A DNA stretch of 64,000 nt from Candidatus Saccharimonadales bacterium (GCA_049521895.1 JBEKOJ010000001.1:98717-162716); one strand, 5' to 3'; positions 3,577-49,751 are shown, counted from the stretch's first letter. Translations and numbers: made by a program. Notes: generated from the letters alone by a model not told the origin.

Positions 3577-3734
3577 CGTCAGAACTAATATCAACTCCGC
3601 TAAATTTTCTGGCAATCAAGTGACCAAAAAATAGCGGGGTCTTTTATTGTTCTTCCTTTCCGTTTTACGCAGCTCCGCGTAAAGAGGGGCAGCCCGTGGA
3701 AAATACTGCTAGCTACTTTTTACTTGATTTTCAA

Positions 3735-13925: not shown

Positions 13926-14282
13926 TTACGCAGTTACCTTTTCTCTGTCTTTAGCCTTGGACTCTTCTTTGAGCAGCGAGTCTTCGAACTCTTTTTGGGC
14001 TGTCTTAAGATCCCAGCCGATTGAATTGGCGAGTTCGCCATCCACGTAGTGTTTGATTTGCGCCCATTGCAGCGGGGCATAAAGCCTTAGCTTTTGCATG
14101 TAACTTTCGCCCTCGGTGTTGGGCTTGGGCCCGAATTTAGAAAATTCGATATACTCCCTGCCCTCACTGGTTTTGCCGTGGCGGGCATAGAACTTATTGG
14201 CTGATTTTTTGTGCAGCGGGATCTCTAGATAGATTTCCTCTCCCCACGGCAGCGTGCGGACTATTTTAGTTGTTTGGCTCAT
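13926..14282 (-). CDS. hypothetical protein
   Basis: ORF with RBS AAGGAGAAAA 5 nt upstream of the ATG. No domain recognised. Confidence 0.6.
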   Translation of the reverse strand: MSQTTKIVRTLPWGEEIYLEIPLHKKSANKFYARHGKTSEGREYIEFSKFGPKPNTEGESYMQKLRLYAPLQWAQIKHYVDGELANSIGWDLKTAQKEFEDSLLKEESKAKDREKVTA

Positions 14283-14318
14283 GATTTTCTCCTTGAACTT
14301 ACTTAAATTTGCTCGAAC

Positions 14319-14342
14319 AAAAAAATCCGCCCAAGGCGGATC
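14319..14342 (-). terminator. rho-independent terminator / possible attenuator
   Basis: Minus strand reads GATCCGCC-TTG-GGCGGAT followed by TTTTTTT. It lies 36 nt upstream of the 13926-14282 start and overlaps the stop codon of a 6-codon mini-ORF. Confidence 0.7.
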
Positions 14343-14479
14343 TAAAAGTCATATAATTTCATGAGCCTCCTTTTTGCGGCTTTCACGGGGTGGCAGTCGT
14401 GCCGCAAATTTAAATACAATTCTCAATATATACTCAGCTGGACAAACATGCAAATTTAAATAATGCTTATGCTTTAAAT

Positions 14480-14740
14480 CTGTGGAAAAGTATTAGGAAT
14501 CAGCTGCTATAGGGCACGACCCTATAGCAAGAACTGTAGCTGATGGACCTGGGCATAAGGAGCCAACCTGATATTATTTCGGGCATCTGGCGAGACCTGA
14601 GTGGATGATGTGAAAAAGGAGCGTACTTGGTTGCTAAAGCATGTTCGACGAAGTGAATATGCTGGGAGCATATTCACGAGGAGTTCTTTAGCAAGCCCTC
14701 TTTTTGACATCAGACACATCAAGTCGAGACAACCGCCCGA
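14480..14740 (-). ncRNA. candidate structured RNA (copy Z of the 78-nt-core element family)
   Basis: Core at 14621-14698 shares two perfect blocks with the island copies: GCTAAAGAACTCCTCG and CTTCGTCGAACATGCTTTAGC. They flank a hairpin (14654-14676, TGAATATGCT-CCC-AGCATATTCA) whose stem differs from the island copies by compensated changes. Further homology lies downstream (GCTCCTTATGCCCAGGTCC; CAGGTCTCGCCAGATGCCCGAA). The extent is uncertain. Confidence 0.5.
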
Positions 14741-14802
14741 GAGCTTTTGCATACTTTTGGCGGATCAAAAGTATGAGACATTTGCTTCTTTGAAAAAGAA
14801 CC

Positions 14803-15372
14803 TTAAAAATCGATACCTTTGTTGGCCAAATACTTGTCGTCAAAATGGTGGCGGATTTTAGTCATATTGGTAGCGATATCTACCAGCGGCAAAAACTCCT
14901 CCGGAAAGTCCCTGCCCGTGAGGCACAGGCTGGTTTTAGGAGCTTTGGTTTTGATGAGTCTTTTTAGATCGGTTTTTGTAATCAATCTGTGATGTACGGC
15001 ATTATTAATCTCGTCGCAGATTACAATGTCAAATTTGCCGCTAGTAGTGGCTTTGAGGGCTACATTATAGGTGTCACGGGCAGCCTGCTTGTGCTCTTTT
15101 GCTGAAACGTTTTTGGCTGATAGATTGCCGGCGTTATAAAAACCTTTACCACCCTTGTAAAACAGCAACTTCTTACCAAAAACTGGCTCAATTTTCTGTA
15201 TAAAATCGTGCTCGCCGACATTCCAGTGCTTGATGAATTGGATGTAGGCCACGCGCCAACCGTTACCTAATGCCCGAGCCATCAAGCCAACACTGGCGCT
15301 GGTTTTACCCTTGCCCTCACCGGTATAAATGACGACCACCGAATCCTTAGTTTTATAATCCTCAAACGCCAT
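14803..15372 (-). CDS. cob(I)yrinic acid a,c-diamide / cob(I)alamin adenosyltransferase (CobA/CobO/BtuR type)
   Basis: VVIYTGEGKGKTSASVGLMARALGNGWRVAYIQFIK (P-loop) and CDEINNA motifs typical of the family. Confidence 0.8.
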   Translation of the reverse strand: MAFEDYKTKDSVVVIYTGEGKGKTSASVGLMARALGNGWRVAYIQFIKHWNVGEHDFIQKIEPVFGKKLLFYKGGKGFYNAGNLSAKNVSAKEHKQAARDTYNVALKATTSGKFDIVICDEINNAVHHRLITKTDLKRLIKTKAPKTSLCLTGRDFPEEFLPLVDIATNMTKIRHHFDDKYLANKGIDF

Positions 15373-30654: not shown

Positions 30655-30786
30655 AAAAAAATCCTTTCTGGCAAGAGAAAGGATATGATTTTATATATCT
30701 TTCCCTTACGGGCTAGATTTGGCACCCGCCCTAAGCGGGTTGTCGGCAGATTAACGGGCTAGTTCCCTGTCTGCACTCTTGATATT
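30655..30786 (-). promoter_or_regulatory. SAM-I (S-box) riboswitch with terminator expression platform
   Basis: Minus strand reads ATATCAAGAGTGCAGACAGGGAACTAGCCCGTTAATCTGCCGACAACC...GGGTGCCAAATCTAGCCCGTAAGGGAAAGATATAT. This matches the SAM-I consensus blocks (AUCAAGAG, GGGA-CUGGCCCG, GCAACC, GGUGCCAAUUC, GAAAGAU). It is followed by the hairpin TCCTTTCT-CTTGCC-AGAAAGGA plus TTTTTTT, directly before the metK ATG. Confidence 0.85.
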
Positions 30787-30847
30787 TAATTGTTAACGAG
30801 ATCTATTCTATCACATCATATGCGGCCCAGGCATGCATTGTGAATGG

Positions 30848-37345: not shown

Positions 37346-37650
37346 TTTCGGGGGATTCGATGAGAGAAATAATTTTGCTACCCGGAGTGGCCGGGTAGCG
37401 CCTGCCACCGGGCGCGTCGCCGGCTCGATGTATCTGTTGTTTAAAACAGGCTCGCTAAAGAACTCCTCGCTGAGCAGTCCCCGACTACTCAACTTCGTCG
37501 AACATGCTTTAGCGCCCAAGGACGCCTCTTTGAAACAACATCTGCTCGGGCCAGCTCCTTATGCCCGGACCTGTTAGCTTCATCTGTTTTGAGCTGATGC
37601 CCGCCGTGTAGCGAACCGCGTTCTACTACTGCGGCCCGGACCCATTTTAT
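37346..37650 (+). repeat. structured element copy A (junction motif b + 78-nt core at 37449-37526)
   Basis: Starts TTTCGGGGGATTCGATGAGAGAAATAATTTTGCTA. Hairpins are CTACCCGG-AGTGG-CCGGGTAG and CTGTT..AACAG, and the core hairpin at 37471-37491 is TGAGCAGTC-CCC-GACTACTCA. Ends GCGGCCCGGACCCATTTTAT. Positions 37371-37526 are nearly identical to 44241-44396. Confidence 0.85.
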
Positions 37651-38356
37651 GTCTAAGTTTTCTTAAACCCGAACCGATACAAAAAAGCACAGCTATGTTA
37701 AAGCTGTGCTTTGAAACAAACGGTAAGTCTTTTTACGATTTACGACCCAGGCTAAAGTGTGCCTATATATGGGATCTGTAAACGCTCGCTCGTAAGCAGA
37801 AAGATGTAGCGTTTCAAGCGGACTCAGATTTTGCTGTCAAAGAGAATACGTCTGTACATTAATAATATCACACTTTTTTATTTTGTCCAGATATCTTCTG
37901 CAACCTTTGGATAGCAAAGGTTGCGCCAAATCCTTCTGGTTTTTGAGGGCCCAAAGCTAGTCCCAGTCGGGGGCGTAGTGTCAGGATTCGGTACGGGTTG
38001 GGATAACCTTAAACAGCAGTGTGTTGTCGGTGATGTAGCTGAATTATAGTTCATAGCCATATTTGATATTTGTATTTCAAAAGGTTTTATAGGCTTATTA
38101 CCCTAATAGGCTCACTATAATACTAATGCTTAAAAAATCAATACCTCTATATGGCGGGCTTTAGCTAGACTAAGCTTGCGTTAAGCTCTACGCCCAGAAG
38201 ATCAGATTGGCAACCAGCTTGACATTTTGGAATTTTAATATTGATAAAAGTTTATCTTTATGCTTTAATGATGTTACTTCGGAGTACTTCGTTTGGTGCG
38301 TTGGCTGTTCCGAAGACTCAGCCTTAATCGTACTCCTACAAAAAGAGAGGGTTTTC

Positions 38357-39271
38357 ATGACCAGAAGGTTATGGATTCTCGCAGGCGCGATCTTCGCGGC
38401 TGTGGTGCTCGGCGTCGGTTTTGCAACTGGCGCGCAGAACTACATCATCTCCAGCCCCAACCAGATCGCTAACAACATCATCCCGGCCTGGAAGCTCACG
38501 CCGGCTGCCCGGCAGTCGCTCCAGGGCGACCGCGGCCCGCAAGGACTGCATGGCCAACGCGGAGCGCAGGGTCCTGCAGGCCAATCAATCATCGGCCCGC
38601 AGGGCCCCGCCGGAGCACCCGGGGCGTCCATCACGGGACCCAAGGGTGACACCGGTAATACGGGTCCGGCGGGAGCCGACTCAACGGTGCCCGGTCCGAA
38701 GGGCGACAAGGGTGACACCGGTAATACGGGTCCGGCGGGAGCCGACTCAACGGTGCCCGGTCCGAAGGGTGACAAGGGTGACACCGGAGCAGCCGGTCCG
38801 CAGGGGCCGCAGGGCGGCAGCCTGTTCGTGTTCGGGCCGTACGCCGGGTCGTCGACGGACTCGTCTGTCTGCGGACCCGACTGGGCAAACGACACCTACA
38901 CCAGGACGTTCGCCGTCGTACCTCAAGCCGACGGCTCGTTCCTGCTCTACGAGTACGCGTCGGGGACCTTCACGACGTTGGCCGGTAACTCGCCCGAGGA
39001 CTGCAACGTGCAGATCCCGGCGGGAATCACCGGAACTCTCTACGGCGACGAAGCGTTCACCATCCCGGCCGGGTCGGACTTCGACCCGACGGCCAGCTTC
39101 AGCTCGCCCGCCGGGCAGCACAACTCGGACGCGGTAAGCGCGTTCATCGCCGCGTTCTTCCCCGGCCAGACGCTGCCGGACAACTACGCCTGGCAGTTCC
39201 ACTACCGGACCGCAAGCAACGGCTCGTGGGACGACACGGACCACGGCGACACGGGGAACATCACCCCGTAA
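38357..39271 (+). CDS. collagen-like (Gly-X-Y) repeat protein with signal/TM anchor and globular C-terminal domain
   Basis: MTRRLWILAGAIFAAVVLGVGFA, then about 100 aa of GXY triplets (GDRGPQGLHGQRGAQGPAG...). GC is high from the start codon onward. RBS GAGAGGG. The longer track ORF (from 38207) begins in AT-rich non-coding-looking sequence. Confidence 0.8.
   Translation: MTRRLWILAGAIFAAVVLGVGFATGAQNYIISSPNQIANNIIPAWKLTPAARQSLQGDRGPQGLHGQRGAQGPAGQSIIGPQGPAGAPGASITGPKGDTGNTGPAGADSTVPGPKGDKGDTGNTGPAGADSTVPGPKGDKGDTGAAGPQGPQGGSLFVFGPYAGSSTDSSVCGPDWANDTYTRTFAVVPQADGSFLLYEYASGTFTTLAGNSPEDCNVQIPAGITGTLYGDEAFTIPAGSDFDPTASFSSPAGQHNSDAVSAFIAAFFPGQTLPDNYAWQFHYRTASNGSWDDTDHGDTGNITP
38645..38776 (+). repeat. 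perfect or near-perfect 66-nt tandem duplication inside the collagen-like gene
   Basis: GGTGACACCGGTAATACGGGTCCGGCGGGAGCCGACTCAACGGTGCCCGGTCCGAAGGG.GACAAG occurs twice, encoding GDTGNTGPAGADSTVPGPKGDK twice. Confidence 0.9.
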
Positions 39272-39451: not shown

Positions 39452-39730
39452 TTTTGGGGTATGATGAAAAATAATTTTGCTAGCCTGAATGGCAGCAGTC
39501 ATCTTCTTTTCCAAAGAAGCAAATAATTTTGTCACCTTTTACCGAAAAGGTGACACCAAACTCTCGGCTGCTTCCTCACCGTGACTTGATTGTTGGTAAA
39601 AATCAAGGCTCGCTAAAGAACTCCTCGCTGAACAGTCCTCGACTACTCAACTTCGTCGAACATGCTTTAGCGCCCAAGGACGCCTGATTTCCACAACATC
39701 AAATCAGGGCTCGAAAGATGCCGAACTTGC
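39452..39730 (+). repeat. structured element copy B (junction motif c + core at 39607-39684)
   Basis: Starts TTTTGGGGTATGATGAAAAATAATTTTGCTA. Its hairpins differ from copy A at equivalent positions (GTCACCTTTT-ACCG-AAAAGGTGAC; CTTGATT..AATCAAG), followed by the same core. The 3' hairpin is CCTGATTT..AAATCAGG. Confidence 0.85.
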
Positions 39731-39748
39731 TAAATCCAGTTACATACA

Positions 39749-41758: not shown

Positions 41759-42394
41759 CTACCTCGTGAACTTGAACGACGGAGGTCCGGTGATCTGGAT
41801 CTGGCCCGTGGCGTCGTTCCACGTTGCCGCCGCGAAGGTGGAAGCCACGTAGCCCTCCCAGTAGAAGGGGGTGACCGCACCGCCCTTGCCGATGCAGAGG
41901 ACGTACGTTCCCGTGCCGCCGCCCTGGTAGATCCCGTTCGGATCCATGTTCTTGATCGTGATGTTGCCGCCGCCGTTGTTCAGCGGTTGGGAGTTGTCGC
42001 GCTCCGGCTGATCCGGATTGCTGAGCTGGTCTTCGACCTGGATCGGCGCGCCGATCGACGGGCACTGGTACATCGGCGGGCTGGCCTTGGTGCAGCCCAT
42101 CGGCGGGCAGAAGAACGACGTCGACTGGGCACCCACGACCTCGGCGTTCTCGATCTCGATCAGGTTCTGCCGGATCTGGCTCTTGCCGGAGAAGGCCGGC
42201 AGCGGCTGAACCTGCAGGTAGTGGTTCGAGATGACGTCCTGCTGCCGCTGTTCGGTGTCGATCGGGTTGCTGCCCGACGCCAGCGCTGCGCCGGTCGAGA
42301 CCAGCAGAGCGAAGACGATGGCGAACGCAACGCGTCCACGGGTGATCTTGATCGTCAGCGGTTCCGTCCGGCGGTATCTCGGGAACTTCTTCAT
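41759..42394 (-). CDS. secreted Cys-containing hypothetical protein (GC-rich block)
   Basis: Signal/TM segment (VAFAIVFALLVSTGAALA). RBS GAGGAG. A GC-rich hairpin GGCGGGGA-CAGTAATG-TCCCCGCC (41704-41727) lies downstream of the stop. Confidence 0.65.
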   Translation of the reverse strand: MKKFPRYRRTEPLTIKITRGRVAFAIVFALLVSTGAALASGSNPIDTEQRQQDVISNHYLQVQPLPAFSGKSQIRQNLIEIENAEVVGAQSTSFFCPPMGCTKASPPMYQCPSIGAPIQVEDQLSNPDQPERDNSQPLNNGGGNITIKNMDPNGIYQGGGTGTYVLCIGKGGAVTPFYWEGYVASTFAAATWNDATGQIQITGPPSFKFTR

Positions 42395-42407
42395 GTCGTC
42401 AGTCTCC

Positions 42408-42872
42408 TCAGTGGGGGTTGGGTTCCGTCGGGTACGTCTCGTAAGGAGACGCTGGATTCGCTACGTCGCCGTTGCAGTTGGCCTTGATGAAGGCCGCCGA
42501 CGGCAGCGGGCCCTGTGAGGGGTCTACCGTCGAGGCGTCGCTGCAAAGGGTCATGAGCGTATTGAGCCGCTGGTTCCCCAGGGCCTGCTTCTCCTCTTCC
42601 GTCTGGCCGACCATCTGAGCGCCGATCTGGCTGATCTCCTGCATGTCGGCGGTCACCGCCTGGCGCTGGGCCTGCTGGTAGCCGTAGTTGTGCACGTAGT
42701 TGTGCGCCTGGATCTGGTTGATCGTTCCTTGCCGCTTGGCATTCTGGACCTGGAACCAGCCGCCGACGGCCCAGCCGACGACGAGAATCACGACGACCAG
42801 GGCTGCGGCAATCGCTGCGAGGGCCATTCCTGACAGCCCAGCGATGACTCCCTCGCGGGTGTCGTCATTCAT
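42408..42872 (-). CDS. single-TM hypothetical protein (GC-rich block)
   Basis: TM helix LSGMALAAIAAALVVVILVVGWAVGGW. The start overlaps the upstream stop (ATGAATGA coupling). Confidence 0.65.
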   Translation of the reverse strand: MNDDTREGVIAGLSGMALAAIAAALVVVILVVGWAVGGWFQVQNAKRQGTINQIQAHNYVHNYGYQQAQRQAVTADMQEISQIGAQMVGQTEEEKQALGNQRLNTLMTLCSDASTVDPSQGPLPSAAFIKANCNGDVANPASPYETYPTEPNPH

Positions 42873-43107
42873 GAAGTCTCCTCCTTAGCCGTTTCGTTTC
42901 GGCTTCTCGGTCTAGTGAGATCTTACGAACCGCGTACTCATTTGCGGTTATCTTGTCCATCATCACGGCCTCTTCTAGCGCCTTCTGTCGCGTCTCGATC
43001 GACGGGTGTTTCTGCTTGTATCCCTGTCGCAGCAACACCCCGACCACACCTAGAAGGAGGATCGCGATTAGAACGAGTACTCCAACTACTAAGAGTGGGT
43101 TAATCAT
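42865..43107 (-). CDS. small TM protein with SHOCT-like C-terminal helix (GC-rich block)
   Basis: TM helix LLVVGVLVLIAILLLGVVGVLL, then KITANEYAVRKISL resembling the SHOCT motif. RBS GGAGAG. Confidence 0.6.
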   Translation of the reverse strand: MINPLLVVGVLVLIAILLLGVVGVLLRQGYKQKHPSIETRQKALEEAVMMDKITANEYAVRKISLDREAETKRLRRRLHE

Positions 43108-44190: not shown

Positions 44191-44500
44191 TATTTTTGGG
44201 ATTCGATCCTTCGGCCAGCTCAGGACAGGTGAGAAGAATAATTTTTGCTACCCGGAGTGGCCGGGTAGCGCCTGCCACCGGGCGCGTCGCCGGCTCGATG
44301 TATCTGTTGTTTAAAACAGGCTCGCTAAAGAACTCCTCGCTGAGCAGTCCCCGGCTACTCAACTTCGTTAAACATGCTTTAGCGCCCAAGGACGCCTGAT
44401 TTTTACAACGTCAAATCAGGGCTCGAAAGATGCCGAACTTAAGAAGCCGATACCTGTCCAGCACTTATCGCGATAAGTGCTGCGGCCCGGACCCATTTTA
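44191..44500 (+). repeat. structured element copy C (junction motif e + core at 44319-44396)
   Basis: TATTTTTGGGATTCGAT (44191-44207) is 17/17 identical to gloA 41008-41024. A 32-nt insertion follows relative to copy A, then sequence nearly identical to copy A through the core. The 3' hairpin is CAGCACTTATCG/CGATAAGTGCTG, and it ends GCGGCCCGGACCCATTTTA. Confidence 0.85.
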
Positions 44501-44520
44501 TCTTTGGGATTCAACAAGAG
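44496..44520 (+). repeat. junction motif copy f (TTTTATCTTTGGGATTCAACAAGAG)
   Basis: The minus-strand reading gives VESQR-TAA, again mimicking the gloA end. Confidence 0.65.
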
Positions 44521-44525
44521 AAATT

Positions 44526-44723
44526 TTGGTGCAGCAAGTAGGAAAATCTTTACACCTCATCAGGGATGAGATAGCCCGTTGGAGAACTATGCTAGAAATC
44601 CCTTATCGGGAGTATCTAAGTTCTATAATGCAATTAAGTGACACAAGGGATTTATACATGTTAGTAGATAGAATAGATGAGGCGCAGCTTAAAGACACTT
44701 TCGGGCTAGAGCTTACTGACTAG
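44526..44723 (+). CDS. possible small hypothetical protein (start uncertain)
   Basis: This is the 3' part of track ORF 44430-44723. The 5' part overlaps the non-coding repeat, so only TTG/GTG starts at 44526/44529 are plausible. There is no clear RBS. Confidence 0.3.
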   Translation: MVQQVGKSLHLIRDEIARWRTMLEIPYREYLSSIMQLSDTRDLYMLVDRIDEAQLKDTFGLELTD

Positions 44724-46517
44724 GTTAGTGATCAGACTTTTAATACTTGCCTGAGTTGTCGATCTCAAATCCGTCAGCTTTAATTTACTGTCTTTTACTT
44801 TTTTATAAAACTTTATAGCAGAAATTAGCTTTGGCAGATTATTGTCGAGCAGGTACTTAGAATTAGTTGTCGTGTATCTTACGCTACTATTCCCAATAAC
44901 ATGCTTCTTAAAATCGCCCTTAGTAAAAATATCTTCGATTCCATCAACCCCTACCCCAATTAACTTGTTACTAGAGAGTGTTGGGTCACCACCGAACACA
45001 TCCCGTTTGATTTCTCTCCTGACACTCTTACCAGCTGGATCGTCATCAGTAAGCACTACAAAATCTAGATCCCATCCCAAGAATAAATTAACTAAGAGCG
45101 GGATATTTGTGACTCCTGTAGCAGGCAGAAAGTTAGTTTCATGCGTTTCGCCGATTAGTTTTTTAAAGGCTTTAAGATAATAGAACGCACTTGGCTCTTC
45201 AAGAATAATATTATTTTTATTCTTTATGGCCTTTTGGTGGTCAAGACTTACGCCAATGAGAGTATATACAGGAAATAGGGTGTCTCTGTTGGCTGCACCA
45301 AGTTTATGTATGTCAAAGACATTTGTTTCACTATTCTCATCATCCACATCTGATCTCTGAACTGCCAGTAAGCGGTAGAGTGATTCAGGCTCAATTAAGT
45401 AAGGTGAGTGAGTTGTATAAAAGATCTGAAGATTCTTCCTAATGTCTTCGAATACTTTTAATACATCTTTCTGCGCCTTAGCATGTAATGAAGCACCAGG
45501 TTCATCGATGAGCAGTATATCGTTATTATTTTCGACTTTTGCCATTGCGTTTAACTGTAAGAAAAAGGACAAAAACCACTGCACCCCCTTACTGCGCTGA
45601 TCAGGGCGCAAAAGCTCTTGAGAATCCTTAACCCAAAACGAAAGGTAGGGCTTACCCGCTAACTCAGGATCTTTGTCATCATGATTTTTAAGCTCTACCT
45701 CTATTTCTATTTTGCTGCTCTTACCTATATATTGTCTCCAGAACTCCTGAAATTGATGCGTAAGAGCTAGGTTAGCCCTTCTAACTTTTTTACCCAAAGT
45801 CCGTGCGTGAGTTTGTGCTAGATCTGATGAATTTAGATCAACAATTCTAAGAAAATTGCGTGCACCTTTTATGCCAGGAGCTTGTGACGAGGTATTGTCT
45901 ATCTCGCTCAAGTCAATAGTCGCAGGCAGTAGACTACCCAAATCTTCGAAAAATTCAATGCTGGGAGTATGAGAATAGATCTGTTCTACTAAATCGGTAT
46001 AGTCCAAAGCCTTTGGCAGTGCTTTTGTTTCCGTAGCCGCAGGTTCTGCTTCGTTTTCTGCTGGTGCTTCTTCCGCTCCAGGTTCTTCCGCGGGGGGTTC
46101 AGGCGCAGGCTGGCTAGTAGAAACAGACTCAATAATCTCCCTCAGATCATCGTTCTCAATATCTAGGGTCGATGTTTCTTTGTCCAAGCCAGTCCAGGTT
46201 CGCTTAAGTATAATAATGTTCCCATTCTTATGGAAATAGTCAGTTACGGGTTTAGCCCCATCGTATTCTATAAGTATTTCTGCAAGTTCTTCCTCACTAA
46301 ATGCATATGTGCAGGTCACTTCAGGGTATAGGTCAGCATCCTTTAAGTAATCTTCCTTGAGCTCCCCTTGATCAAAGCAGTACAATGCCTCTAGCACTGC
46401 GGTCTTTCCAGCTTCATTCTGACCGATTAGAGCTGTAATGTTGTCAGAAGATGTTTGGCACAGTCCAGTGTCGATAATTGATTTAAAGTCCTTGATTCTA
46501 AAAGCTGTTAACTTCAC
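44706..46517 (-). CDS. OLD-family nuclease (ABC-type ATPase + Toprim)
   Basis: Walker A GQNEAGKT, Walker B ILLIDEPGASLH, Toprim Glu (IILEEPSAFYY) and DxD (VVLTDDDPAGKS). Low GC, GTG start. Confidence 0.8.
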   Translation of the reverse strand: MKLTAFRIKDFKSIIDTGLCQTSSDNITALIGQNEAGKTAVLEALYCFDQGELKEDYLKDADLYPEVTCTYAFSEEELAEILIEYDGAKPVTDYFHKNGNIIILKRTWTGLDKETSTLDIENDDLREIIESVSTSQPAPEPPAEEPGAEEAPAENEAEPAATETKALPKALDYTDLVEQIYSHTPSIEFFEDLGSLLPATIDLSEIDNTSSQAPGIKGARNFLRIVDLNSSDLAQTHARTLGKKVRRANLALTHQFQEFWRQYIGKSSKIEIEVELKNHDDKDPELAGKPYLSFWVKDSQELLRPDQRSKGVQWFLSFFLQLNAMAKVENNNDILLIDEPGASLHAKAQKDVLKVFEDIRKNLQIFYTTHSPYLIEPESLYRLLAVQRSDVDDENSETNVFDIHKLGAANRDTLFPVYTLIGVSLDHQKAIKNKNNIILEEPSAFYYLKAFKKLIGETHETNFLPATGVTNIPLLVNLFLGWDLDFVVLTDDDPAGKSVRREIKRDVFGGDPTLSSNKLIGVGVDGIEDIFTKGDFKKHVIGNSSVRYTTTNSKYLLDNNLPKLISAIKFYKKVKDSKLKLTDLRSTTQASIKSLITNLVSKL

Positions 46518-46654
46518 CTGACCCTCTTTTGCGTAATTATGCTAATTATCCTCTATGCCTTCTAGTAAGTAAATACTACATAATGCTTATGCTTATATCG
46601 CAAGAATTAATAGATGTCGAACGATAAGTATTGGACACTTACGGTATAGGTCTG

Positions 46655-46680
46655 TTTTTGGGGCTCGACGAGAGAGATTT
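46655..46680 (+). repeat. junction motif copy g (TTTTTGGGGCTCGACGAGAGAGATTT)
   Basis: Immediately abuts the stop codon of the SRA-HNH gene. The minus-strand reading contains VEPQK. Confidence 0.75.
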
Positions 46681-47508
46681 CTAGTTATTGAAGAATTTTT
46701 CGTTGTGGTATTTGAGAAATTCTAAATTAATATGATGCTTTGGAGATATCACTATCCTACCCTTCAAAGGCCCGACAAGCTGTAGTCTAGGATCGATTGA
46801 GAAGGCATAATTATCGAACATAACATGGTGATTGGGGCATAGACAAAGTATATTCTCAATTATATCTGGCCCGTCGTGTGGCCTGCCTAATGGCTTTATG
46901 TGCGCTGCTTCAGCATATCTCTGTCCAAGTGGAAGTTCGATAGCCATACCACAAACCTGGCATCTATAGTCATATATCTCCTTCAGCTTTCTAGATTGTT
47001 TTGTGTCACGCACAATTCTTAACGATTGATATTCCCGGCGCTCTGAAGGGAGCACTTCACCTTTGGGCCGACTGGTTTGTTGATAGCTGCCTTCAAGCCT
47101 AAAGCGAATAACGATATGCCCGCTCTTACCAACCTCGCGCCAATATTCAGTTACATAAAAATCCCCAGCATACGTATATCCTCTTTTTGGAGAAAATTTT
47201 GACTCATGATTAGAGTCCCTTATTACATGTATGGGAGCATTTCTTTCCTTACTTATAGCTAAGGCTAGATTACCTTTTGTCAGTTGCTGGTCTGATATTT
47301 GCTTACCACTTCTTGGATCGCGCCCTCCCTCACCGGTGTAAATGACTATGTTGCCATAATCCTCATCATCTTCATAACCACCAGACAAGACTATTGAATA
47401 AGCTCCCGTCGCCGGGTTTCCGGCTATACCAGCCATAAGCGGTCCATGAAGACCTGCTGCTGCAACTTCTCGCCTATTTTGAAAGTTTGTGCCCGGTTTG
47501 ACCATCAT
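46681..47508 (-). CDS. SRA(YDG)-HNH endonuclease, type IV (modification-dependent) restriction enzyme-like
   Basis: SRA pattern AGLHGPLMAGI...GAYSIVLSGGYEDDEDYGNIVIYTGEGG. The C-terminal HNH is CQVCG...AAHIKP...NILCLCPNHHVMFD. Confidence 0.85.
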   Translation of the reverse strand: MMVKPGTNFQNRREVAAAGLHGPLMAGIAGNPATGAYSIVLSGGYEDDEDYGNIVIYTGEGGRDPRSGKQISDQQLTKGNLALAISKERNAPIHVIRDSNHESKFSPKRGYTYAGDFYVTEYWREVGKSGHIVIRFRLEGSYQQTSRPKGEVLPSERREYQSLRIVRDTKQSRKLKEIYDYRCQVCGMAIELPLGQRYAEAAHIKPLGRPHDGPDIIENILCLCPNHHVMFDNYAFSIDPRLQLVGPLKGRIVISPKHHINLEFLKYHNEKFFNN

Positions 47509-47530
47509 TACTTAAGCCTGTGGTTTTCTG

Positions 47531-49387
47531 TCATGAACGAAGACCTTCTCTAAAATAGCCTTCAGTCTCTTTGTCCATAAAGTAAACGTAGACACCTTTA
47601 TGCGCTCGGCTCAGGAGGACTCTATAGACATTCTTGAGGTGGTTAGCAAATTGAGCGTTACCGCGTTTGGCGGCCGAGTCATATGAAAATTCCGGCTGGG
47701 CTATCCAGCTGCCAGCATTTTTTTGATAAACCAAATCCTTGCCAAAAATTACGCCTATGTAGTCAAATTCAAAGCCTTGGGCAGTGTAGACTGTACCGAT
47801 CTGCTCCATACCGCTATCATCTGTTGCCCATTTCCAAAATTCATTTTTCTTTTCCCACGGCATCTCAAAACTGCCGATCTTGACGTCTTTGACTAACGAT
47901 CCATCAGAATTTGGCTCGCTCCACGGCCAACAAAAGCCAGCAGCAATTCTGGCTGAATTTTTCTTCTCAGAATTCTTCTGGCGAATTTTTAGTAGCATGT
48001 CGTGAGGATCATCGAAAATTCTGAACTCCATTTTTGGATCGAAATGTGCTAGATCTGATGGTCTAATATCAAGTAAATTATCAAGCCACTGTAGATAGGC
48101 GTCAGATCCGGAGCAGCGGAACTGAGTCGTAAGCTCAAATTCTCCAATATCTTCTGGTCCAATACCAATCCTTTCAGCAGCATTTTTAATCAACTTAACA
48201 CTACCGATCTCGTTAGGGCGCACTACCTGGTATTCATCAATAAAGAAAATTGAAAGTTTGGCCACGCTTAATAACTCATCGATTTGTGGCATATTGGAGC
48301 GCTGAGTTTTTGAGGTATACATATTGTTGCTGGTTTCACGTATTCGGTGAGCTTCATCACAGACTAGAACATCAATTGAATTGGACTCAGCGTTCGTAAA
48401 GCTATTGAAGAACTTAAAAAGGTTTTTGGCTCGTACCCCCACGATTTTTCGAAGAGTATTGGTAAAAGCAGATGAACCGGTGGCATGAAAAACTACCTGC
48501 CCCCGCCGCATCAATTCACCCATAACTTCCAGGGCAATCACCGATTTACCGGTTCCCGGTCCACCCTTTACGATAATGACCGATTTGGTTGATTGCACGC
48601 TGAGTTTCTTAGCCCGACCGATAATAGAGTTATATGCTGTAATCTGATCATCAATCAGAGTAAAAATTTGTTGTTTGTGAATCATATCGCCAGTGTGATC
48701 CAGCAGCTTCTTCGACGGCCGGACAGGACTATTAGTGAACCGGTTAAGGACCTCGACACCCTGGCCGGCCGATATACGTTTTTGCAGATATTCTCCGAGG
48801 GCTTTTACATCCTCTTTGCCAAATACGGGGAATTTTTGTAGAGCTACATCGAATGATCTGTCAAGTAATGTTTGCTCACCGGACTCTTTTGAATAGTTGT
48901 GACAGTAGACGCACGAATCTAGTTTCATCGGCTCGCTTTGATCTGTAAAAACCTCGACAAAATCAATTATGCCGTAGTGATAACCTTCGGCTTGTAGAGA
49001 CGGATGGACTTGTTCTTTAACGAATCTGCCGTACTCGACGACGACGTTCCCCTCGCTCTCGCACTTATGAACCTTATCGTTAGACCATTGCTTGAGTTCA
49101 ATTAACACAGCATAGTCACTCGCTCCGTCGTTTTTGCCAAATATCAGTGTGTCAATGCGACGCGAAGTAAATGGTAGTTCGTATTCAATAATGATGCTTG
49201 ATTCAGGCACTTCGGCGTATCGGATAGCGTTATTTAGGTAGTTAAGCGATTCGCGCCATGCACGAGTTTCAGAAGGTCCCGGCGCGCGGCGATAGTATTC
49301 GCTAAAATTATTCTCGAGGATGTCCGCAATTGTATTCGTTGTGACCAGTTCATCAAATTGCCTAATTGTCCCTTCGAAAAGCCTCAT
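47531..49387 (-). CDS. DUF2075-family SF1 helicase-like ATPase with N-terminal PD-(D/E)xK-like module
   Basis: Walker A KGGPGTGKSV, Walker B VLVCDEAHRI, FFIDEYQVVRP, YTAQGFEFDYIGVIFG and VLLSRAHKGVYVY. The N-terminal RRIDTLIFG...VLIELKQW fits D...ExK. Confidence 0.8.
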   Translation of the reverse strand: MRLFEGTIRQFDELVTTNTIADILENNFSEYYRRAPGPSETRAWRESLNYLNNAIRYAEVPESSIIIEYELPFTSRRIDTLIFGKNDGASDYAVLIELKQWSNDKVHKCESEGNVVVEYGRFVKEQVHPSLQAEGYHYGIIDFVEVFTDQSEPMKLDSCVYCHNYSKESGEQTLLDRSFDVALQKFPVFGKEDVKALGEYLQKRISAGQGVEVLNRFTNSPVRPSKKLLDHTGDMIHKQQIFTLIDDQITAYNSIIGRAKKLSVQSTKSVIIVKGGPGTGKSVIALEVMGELMRRGQVVFHATGSSAFTNTLRKIVGVRAKNLFKFFNSFTNAESNSIDVLVCDEAHRIRETSNNMYTSKTQRSNMPQIDELLSVAKLSIFFIDEYQVVRPNEIGSVKLIKNAAERIGIGPEDIGEFELTTQFRCSGSDAYLQWLDNLLDIRPSDLAHFDPKMEFRIFDDPHDMLLKIRQKNSEKKNSARIAAGFCWPWSEPNSDGSLVKDVKIGSFEMPWEKKNEFWKWATDDSGMEQIGTVYTAQGFEFDYIGVIFGKDLVYQKNAGSWIAQPEFSYDSAAKRGNAQFANHLKNVYRVLLSRAHKGVYVYFMDKETEGYFREGLRS

Positions 49388-49731
49388 AGTTCGGTATATT
49401 TCTTGTGGCTGTTTTTGGCTTTCGTAACTGGGTATTTTTTCTCGTTTTTCTTCATTTTGCGCTCAAATTCCTTCGGTAAATTTATATCTAGATCATGCGC
49501 TATCAAAAGTACCCAGTACAAAACATCCACTAGTTCATCGCTTACTTCTTCACGATTCTTTTTTAGATGTTTTTTAATTTCTTTGGCTGACTTCCATTGA
49601 AAGTGCTCCAAAAATTCGGCGGCTTCAAGCGCCAAAGAAATGGCTAAGTCTTTAGGATTATGAAACTGTTCCCAGTTTCGCTTGTCCCGATAGTTAATAA
49701 TCCTTTTTTGCAAATCCTCAAGATCAGACAT
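49384..49731 (-). CDS. MazG-like nucleotide pyrophosphohydrolase (dCTPase/DR2231-type small MazG)
   Basis: RDKRNWEQFHNPKDLAISLALEAAEFLEHFQWK and EEVSDELVDVLYWVLLIAHDL (EExxE/D metal motifs). The stop overlaps the DUF2075 start by 4 nt (ATGA). ATG at 49731 has a GGAG RBS. Confidence 0.8.
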   Translation of the reverse strand: MSDLEDLQKRIINYRDKRNWEQFHNPKDLAISLALEAAEFLEHFQWKSAKEIKKHLKKNREEVSDELVDVLYWVLLIAHDLDINLPKEFERKMKKNEKKYPVTKAKNSHKKYTEL

Positions 49732-49751
49732 CAAAGCTCCAATTCCAGCTA

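Follow-up and report, generated by a model that had tools for sequence, protein, structure and literature searches.

In a 64,000-nt stretch of DNA from a Candidatus Saccharimonadales bacterium (GCA_049521895.1 JBEKOJ010000001.1:98717-162716), which we call the window, we studied a non-coding element on the minus strand, directly behind a cobO-like gene. This element, copy Z, has three relatives on the plus strand of the same window, the island copies A, B and C. We judge the chances to be about even that Z is a member of a dispersed, non-autonomous and mobile family of hairpin repeats, some 250-310 nt long, which occurs in peat and soil Saccharimonadales and is comparable to miniature transposable elements with inverted repeats (MITEs) and to ERIC sequences. 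The CobO protein encoded next to Z, on contigs of up to 0.77 Mb, is 100% identical to one that NCBI assigns to a Candidatus Saccharimonadales MAG. Loci and contigs used for comparison, which come from relatives, conspecific strains and metagenomes, are labelled L022-L057.

The initial annotation had described Z as a fourth, diverged copy lying outside the island, and this copy proved to be genuine and structurally intact. In the window, block 1 of its core, GCTAAAGAACTCCTCG, is matched exactly at four places (minus strand: 14677-14692; plus strand: 37454, 39612 and 44324), compared with 0.01 matches in shuffled sequences. Block 2, CTTCGTCGAACATGCTTTAGC, for which shuffles gave 0 matches, is exact at 14633-14653 (minus strand) as well as in A and B, and shows two mismatches in C. 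Between the two blocks, Z carries the hairpin TGAATATGCT-CCC-AGCATATTCA (14654-14676, minus strand) and the island copies carry TGAGCAGTC-CCC-GACTACTCA, which differs in sequence. The description of this hairpin as fully compensated holds for Z, whose stem is a perfect 10 bp, but not for the island versions, in which one C.A mismatch is found. The predicted RNA fold of Z (-103 kcal/mol, z = -6.95 against shuffled sequences) is the best of the four window copies. The range first assigned to the copy was correct in its core blocks and too short as a whole: by alignment and RNAalifold, homology among the four copies starts about 60 nt further 5′ and takes in two additional hairpins, H0 and H1. 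The complete extent of Z was obtained by comparison with an empty site in L054, where CACTTTTCCACAG directly follows the cobO stop codon. In the window the same homology (ACTTTTCCACAG) resumes at 14491, which makes Z a discrete unit of 311 nt, with the following parts and flanking genes.

14492-14802, minus strand: whole copy Z, a non-coding insertion from the cobO stop codon (14803-14805) to the leader of a gene encoding a 118-aa protein
14786-14800, minus strand: H0, the small hairpin TTCTTT-TTC-AAAGAA, directly after the stop codon
between 14786-14800 and 14750-14775, minus strand: AAAT-rich linker from H0 to H1
14750-14775, minus strand: H1, the hairpin CATACTTTTG-ATCCGC-CAAAAGTATG
14576-14743, minus strand: rod, a 168-nt extended hairpin with the clamp CTCTCGGGC / GCCCGAAAT
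14677-14692, minus strand: conserved block 1, consisting of a stem half and the unpaired motif AGAACTCCT
14654-14676, minus strand: hypervariable terminal hairpin
14633-14653, minus strand: conserved block 2, consisting of an unpaired motif and the other stem half
14623-14630, minus strand: conserved asymmetric bulge CCAAGTAC of the 3′ arm, unpaired in the folds, with CCAAG kept across copies
14545-14571, minus strand: leftover second 3′-arm terminus TCAGGTTGGCTCCTTATGCCCAGGTCC of the A/L046c subtype, matching A, L045 and L046c at the 3′ end of the rod
14500-14543, minus strand: H3 domain, an outer stem TCAGCT/AGCTGA around the final hairpin
14803-15372: cobO-like gene, flanking Z upstream in the minus-strand reading
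13926-14282: 118-aa gene, on the other flank of Z

In the predicted fold of the rod, unpaired AGAACUCCU faces CUUCGUCGAACAUG; the 8-nt bulge CCAAGUAC and the terminal hairpin complete the structure. The final hairpin of Z, GCTATAGGG-TCGTG-CCCTATAGC, lies at 14506-14528. Z was said to be the only copy carrying both of two downstream blocks, which had been taken as a hint of ancestry. Both blocks, CAGGTCTCGCCAGATGCCCGAA and GCTCCTTATGCCCAGGTCC (14545-14571), are indeed present; the second, however, is the leftover 3′-arm terminus listed above and is no sign of ancestry.

A covariance model built from the four window copies found only these four in the window, plus Z in conspecific contigs. The island copies are as follows.

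37361-37647, plus strand: copy A, with intact rod and tail (model match 37366-37580, 219.5 bits; z = -3.98)
39503-39737, plus strand: copy B, with H0, H1 and intact rod, without tail (model match 39521-39737; z = -5.04)
44230-44502, plus strand: copy C, a chimera with its own tail (strain breakpoint 44446/44447; z = -1.41, no rod forms)

The model also gave a weak match in L028, where H0, H1, the clamp and the rod architecture are kept around an unrelated rod interior (z = -5.39). Scanning metagenomes with the core pattern gave ten loci with divergent copies, whose scores of 72-154 bits compare with about 220 for those of the window. These lie at unrelated positions, including sites after groEL, ileS, rplT and ABC permease genes, on contigs that resemble Saccharimonadales. 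A nucleotide profile made from 15 copies (nhmmer) detected no further members. The pattern AACTCCTCG N{15,35} CTTCGTNNAACATG, run on a set of one genome per species and on viral contigs, gave chance matches only, in which the closing stem is absent, and a pattern from the 5′ part of the element likewise gave only chance matches in viral contigs. The family appears to be undescribed so far: Rfam 15 at gathering thresholds identified only two tRNAs and an S-adenosylmethionine (SAM) riboswitch in the window; Rfam scans of Z and A at E <= 10 gave nothing relevant (6S, SRP, RNase P, tmRNA, HEARO/IS605 RNAs and ribozymes included); annotated phage and plasmid collections contained no match to the element; and literature searches returned no report of a structured repeat family in Saccharibacteria or the candidate phyla radiation (CPR).

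Fifteen distinct copies from the window and from peat metagenomes were aligned on the covariance model, a procedure that somewhat favours the structure. In this alignment, 88.9% of cells are paired, compared with 78.1 +/- 0.8 after shuffling and 30-45% with the partner slid. Both sides have changed in 34 of 57 pairs, a value reached in none of 500 shuffles, and the compensated substitutions claimed from the window copies thus persist when more sequences are added. They include 4 of the 5 pairs of helix 1 (H1) and 7 of the 8 of helix 10, the terminal hairpin. In an independent MAFFT/RNAalifold run, 12 of 23 outer pairs had changed on both sides; alignment by MAFFT alone scrambles the hypervariable tip, so that RNAalifold omits the tip helix. 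The clamp itself covaries (UCGGGC/GCCCGA versus CCGGGC/GCCCGG), and the inner stem GCTAAAG/CTTTAGC is replaced by CCTGCAG/CTGCAGG in L046a and by GCTCGAG with the partly complementary CTCTCGC in L046b. The motif AGAACTCCT is constant in all 15 copies, even where the GCTAAAG stem has been replaced, and AAACA(T/G) and CCAAG are constant across copies too. The sequence of H1 differs yet stays complementary among Z, A/C, B, L028 and the L046 copies. An H0-type hairpin, NNN-CTTTT-N-CAAAG-NNN, is also present in B, L052, L028, L045 and L046b, and hairpins of other sequence occupy the H3 position in L052, A, C and C′, the counterpart of C in conspecific strains. For the terminal hairpin we counted about 11 stem sequences in about 13 copies, with a stem that is always 10-12 bp long. 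Predicted folds range from -66 to -132 kcal/mol, and the intact copy in L052 reaches z = -7.29. A unit of the family runs from H0 through a AAATAATTTT linker and H1 into a rod of about 165 nt formed by inverted-repeat arms, often with a further hairpin on the 3′ side. The rod is closed by a YCGGGC/GCCCGR clamp and displays conserved unpaired AGAACUCCU, YUUCGUYRAACAUG and the CCAAG bulge below a tip that is hypervariable yet always paired.

Presence and absence of the element were compared in the cobO-SNase slot, where four states bear on its mobility.

L022-24, cobO 74.2% (nt) and 82% (aa) identical to the window: the slot is a 23-bp gap with neither element nor gene
L054-56, the closest relative found, cobO 78.9% (nt) and 85.8% (aa) identical: a 200-nt leader and a 115-aa gene, no element
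L052, cobO 75.3% (nt) and 79.5% (aa) identical: the element only, with H0, H1, rod and H3
Window: both the element and the 118-aa gene

Other genes fill the slot in L025-27, and L028-30 have over 10 kb of other genes behind cobO, with SNase absent from the DNA examined. The element stands right after the cobO stop codon in the window and in L052, two lineages that by cobO identity each have a closer relative elsewhere; the nearest relative of L052 by this measure is L025, which lacks it. Taken together, these slot states imply at least two gains or losses of the element at this one position. The suggestion that it may target this locus fits these data, given its place behind cobO in both lineages. 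The proposed synteny of cobO, element and 118-aa gene is not conserved, the element being absent from L054-56, L022-24 and L025-27. Nor did the idea hold that Z is the ancestral or functional gene and the island copies its derivatives: the locus is not conserved, and equally intact copies sit at unrelated loci.

The neighbouring 118-aa gene has 269 homologues, every source-named one of which comes from Saccharimonadales. It possesses a conserved leader of its own (14314-14454, minus strand) with a promoter-like TTTGCA-18-TATATT, a hairpin GCGGC...GCCGC, a Shine-Dalgarno sequence AAGGAGG and a six-codon mini-ORF, MKLYDF (14342-14362), whose stop overlaps an intrinsic terminator followed by a T run (14323-14343). 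The L054 leader has the same layout, with the mini-ORF MNLEEF, in the absence of the element. From its sequence, the leader looks like a peptide-leader attenuator. The terminator at 14319-14342, which had been suggested as a place to test for the end of transcription, therefore belongs to this separate leader and is not the end of the element, since leader and terminator are present where the element is not. An RRM_1 RNA-binding protein gene occurs in the slot of L025 (10621-10887) and again beside a 118-aa homologue in L057 (5324-5614), a recurrence that may be coincidence.

The position of the copies relative to genes is biased. A manual tally covered 13 copies whose upstream neighbour is known; 11 of them share the orientation of that gene and begin 0-240 nt past its stop codon (about 0.01 by our one-sided binomial calculation, and about 0.02 if the two orthologous cobO copies are counted once). 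These upstream neighbours are cobO (twice), groEL, ileS, rplT, two ABC permeases, an APH-like kinase, a collagen-like gene, a 195-aa gene and a 116-aa gene.

Several comparisons point to recombination between copies. Copy C resembles A in its 5′ part (96.4% identity) and B in its 3′ part (91.3% identity) and does not fold into a rod, which identifies it as an A/B chimera with mismatched arms and a crossover in the conserved core. The conspecific strains L033, L034 and L050, at 99.5-99.8% identity, follow the window as far as 44446, just past the C clamp GATGCCGAAC. Beyond this point they carry a different tail and genes for G5/DUF3761, DUF3644, a 72%-identical MazG-like protein and an HNH protein, whereas the window past C (44706-49734, minus strand) contains a defence-type cluster encoding an OLD/AAA_15-AAA_21 ATPase, an SRA+HNH protein, a Schlafen group-3 helicase and a MazG-like protein. 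In L050 one more copy, inverted, closes off the alternative segment (L050:187-4642), and the contig ends at it; a search for the right-hand junction of this segment retrieved only window-type strains. In all three comparisons available, similarity stops at the 3′ clamp of the rod or a few bases from it: between strains (C and C′), between species (Z and L052) and between paralogous copies (B and C). Copy B has nothing of the tail beyond the clamp. The same tip, GAAAGACTGCC, sits on one arm type in L052 and L048 and on another in L046c, and leftover fragments are found as well, from 3′ arms in Z and A and from the 5′ part of another element after C. These patterns show frequent exchange among copies. 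Homologous and site-specific exchange are not told apart by the breakpoints, because similarity must end where the repeat ends.

Some further observations concern the same loci. Downstream of the full copy in L052 stands a "collapsed" mini-element, CTTCGGGTTCACCGTGCATGCCCGAAAC (3636-3663): the 5′ clamp, the start of the 5′ arm and the 3′ clamp are there, the interior is missing, and a deletion or a recombination may have left it as a scar. In L046 (88-3962), ileS stands between two direct copies of the element, and a third, inverted copy lies back-to-back just before rplU. Between A and B, a collagen-like repeat gene (38207-39271, plus strand) has a called product of 282, 304 or 326 aa in otherwise near-identical strains, and two contigs end inside it. 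A patch of 63% GC at 42000-43000, compared with about 48% for the genome, has long reading frames open in several frames on both strands; this composition is evidence for the B-C region being a mosaic of foreign DNA. Elsewhere in the window, the SAM riboswitch (RF00162, 48.7 bits) occupies 30692-30788 on the minus strand, just upstream of the S-adenosylmethionine synthetase gene.

Prokaryotic MITEs are short elements of intergenic regions or 3′ untranslated regions (UTRs) whose transcripts form very stable hairpins, with roles in mRNA processing and in rearrangements; examples are QMITE2 in Coxiella, often in the 3′ UTR of ORFs, ERIC in enterobacteria, Correia/NEMIS in Neisseria and RPE in Rickettsia (PMC10969869). 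The element resembles them in that it is shorter than 500 bp, non-coding, multi-copy and intergenic, forms a stable predicted stem-loop, shows insertion polymorphism with a patchy distribution between relatives, and is linked to rearrangements. In this MITE-like reading, whole units are acquired or lost, mostly directly 3′ of a stop codon and in the orientation of that gene, and they would probably be transcribed within the 3′ UTR, the rod then forming a long double-stranded RNA. If ERIC, Correia and QMITE2 are a guide, such a 3′-UTR hairpin could be targeted by an RNase or act as a stabiliser or as a barrier to transcription. Copies would recombine through the conserved core and yield chimeras, swapped tips and leftover arm fragments, and the elements would in this way become junctions at which flanking cargo, including the defence-gene cluster, differs between strains.

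Several findings weigh against this interpretation. No transposase, integrase or reverse transcriptase was found by Pfam annotation in the window or beside any copy, and, unlike MITEs, which a related autonomous insertion sequence or transposase mobilises in trans, the element has no recognisable parent insertion sequence in the DNA available. The ends of the 311-nt unit (GGTTCTTT... / ...GATTCCTAAT) are not inverted repeats; the rod arms are, with H0 and H1 outside them. An extended-rod subfamily (L049, L044a/b) does have terminal CCCCTRWCTTTTT / AAAAAGWYAGGGG. TAA is present at both junctions of Z, and ACTTTTCCACAG, the flank past the insertion, is similar to the 5′ half of H0, but no clear or consistent target-site duplication was detected across copies. 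The GC content is 46-56%, so that the element is not AT-rich as MITEs are. Most of the 20-kb loci of relatives lack it, and the drop in similarity past the rod may be no more than the boundary of the repeat. For B and C, terminator-like hairpins between the element and the upstream gene weaken the case for co-transcription. Sense and antisense strands fold equally well, and G.U pairs show no asymmetry. The modular hypervariable tip and the host, an ultra-small CPR genome, are further differences. Finally, the composite, asymmetric layout (H0-H1-rod-H3), the conserved unpaired motifs and the asymmetric bulge are more elaborate than what is typical of MITEs and suggest a specific protein or RNA partner.

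REP sequences (repetitive extragenic palindromes) are extragenic hairpins, typically behind genes, and REPIN doublets form long hairpins kept paired by compensatory change. The element is likewise an extragenic hairpin repeat behind genes; its rod, however, is not built as a simple doublet and has 4-6 times the length of a REP, and no Y1 HUH transposase of the RAYT type, the partner of REP/BIME and REPIN elements, is present in the window. A link of this kind was considered for L046, where a 220-aa Y1_Tnp gene (IS200/RAYT-like; L046:4432-5235), on a contig that probably belongs to a Saccharimonadales relative, lies one gene away from two copies. We rejected it: the gene is flanked by three copies of an unrelated, REP-like palindrome of its own, GCAGAGGTCTGACCTTTGCA, in a RAYT/REP-type arrangement, and neither a homologue of this Y1_Tnp (tblastn) nor its palindromes were found in the window or at the other loci. 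A guide function of the tip was also considered and dropped, as about 20 hairpin-arm sequences gave one 10-mer match, roughly the chance level by our estimate.

The alternatives to a mobile repeat differ in how well they accommodate these data. That the similarity reflects a protein-coding sequence or chance is refuted: ORFs of 76 aa (minus strand) and 86 aa (plus strand) do overlap Z, but the 76-aa frame is broken by stops in the orthologous L052 copy, no frame is open across copies, the exact core matches number four against 0-0.01 in shuffles, and neither ORF has a Pfam match even at E <= 1. A cis-regulatory leader of the downstream gene, similar to a riboswitch or attenuator, is very improbable and largely refuted by the mixed downstream contexts. 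A same-strand gene does follow Z, A, L028, L046a and C′, but a convergent gene faces B and C (window), L044a, L044b, L045 and L050_x, and the downstream genes are mutually unrelated, both of which argue against leader function; moreover, the hypervariable tip is not aptamer-like, and the conserved promoter, leader and terminator of the 118-aa gene persist where the element is missing. We consider it possible, on the unlikely side, that the copies are stand-alone structured small RNA (sRNA) genes, driven by a promoter of their own (the AAATAAT box before H1) and acting in trans through the unpaired motifs, for instance by binding a protein or by sequestering Shine-Dalgarno-like sequences with CUCCU. 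Functional RNAs are classically recognised by strong covariation combined with conserved loops and bulges; an AAATAAT/TATAAT-like box stands 5-7 nt before H1 in most copies; a small hairpin and T tract follow several copies (L049, L044b); and, with no Rfam match, the RNA would be a new class. Like 6S RNA, the element forms an irregular double-stranded rod of about 170-200 nt with conserved internal loops, but unlike 6S RNA it is multi-copy and patchy, abuts upstream stop codons, persists in chimeric, mis-paired and truncated copies, and matches no Rfam family at E <= 10. At the four window copies, scans for a -35/-10 promoter and for a terminator gave no consistent result, and the copies closest to genes start 0-27 nt past the upstream stop, which leaves no promoter room outside the gene. 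Patchy presence between close relatives would be unusual for a needed trans-acting RNA, and the equal folding of both strands speaks against this reading as well.

The cargo differences raise another alternative, in which the element is a recombination site that folds as single-stranded DNA, analogous to the attC sites of integrons, and a recombinase inserts or exchanges cargo at the base of the rod, the elements serving as landing pads. The resemblance lies in the fixed orientation directly 3′ of an ORF, in the folded rod with unpaired bases and variable tip, in the preservation of structure over sequence and in the cargo junction at the rod base. It extends to the end of similarity at or near the GCCCGR clamp in the three comparisons above, to the 118-aa gene module that lies 3′ of Z in the window while L052 has the element alone, to the different defence-type cargo after C in different strains, and to the hybrid C, the kind of product expected from site-specific exchange. 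However, no integrase or recombinase gene (neither IntI nor, by Pfam, any tyrosine recombinase) is present in the 64 kb or beside any copy. The core sites of attC, R″/R′, read RYYYAAC ... GTTRRRY, whereas the rod bases are YCGGGC ... GCCCGR in all copies; the rod, at about 165 nt, exceeds the usual attC size range, and extra hairpins are attached to it. The upstream genes are housekeeping genes rather than cassettes, the island genes have mixed orientations and form no uniform cassette array, the crossover of C lies inside the conserved core as homologous exchange predicts, and similarity necessarily stops at the end of a repeat. We find an attC-like site unlikely, though, like the sRNA reading, a serious alternative. 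More speculative still, and to us a long shot, is the proposal that the rods are folded recombination or landing-pad modules of CPR bacteria, at whose GCCCGR clamp, right behind resident genes, a recombinase or an RNA-guided enzyme that recognises the conserved unpaired motifs would insert or swap cargo, defence genes among it. If that were true, the tip would be a specificity module, and the system would amount to an integron-like or bridge-RNA-like gene capture of a new kind.

Whichever machinery moves it, the rod is a candidate structured RNA or single-stranded-DNA ligand for a protein. The family also carries a warning for annotation, namely that "sRNA genes" with excellent covariation can be mobile repeats, and it explains at least one assembly break at a repeat (L037, which ends inside copy A), possibly others. 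The genomes of Saccharibacteria and other CPR bacteria are tiny and streamlined, and in these epibionts the family represents a marker, and possibly a driver, of plasticity.

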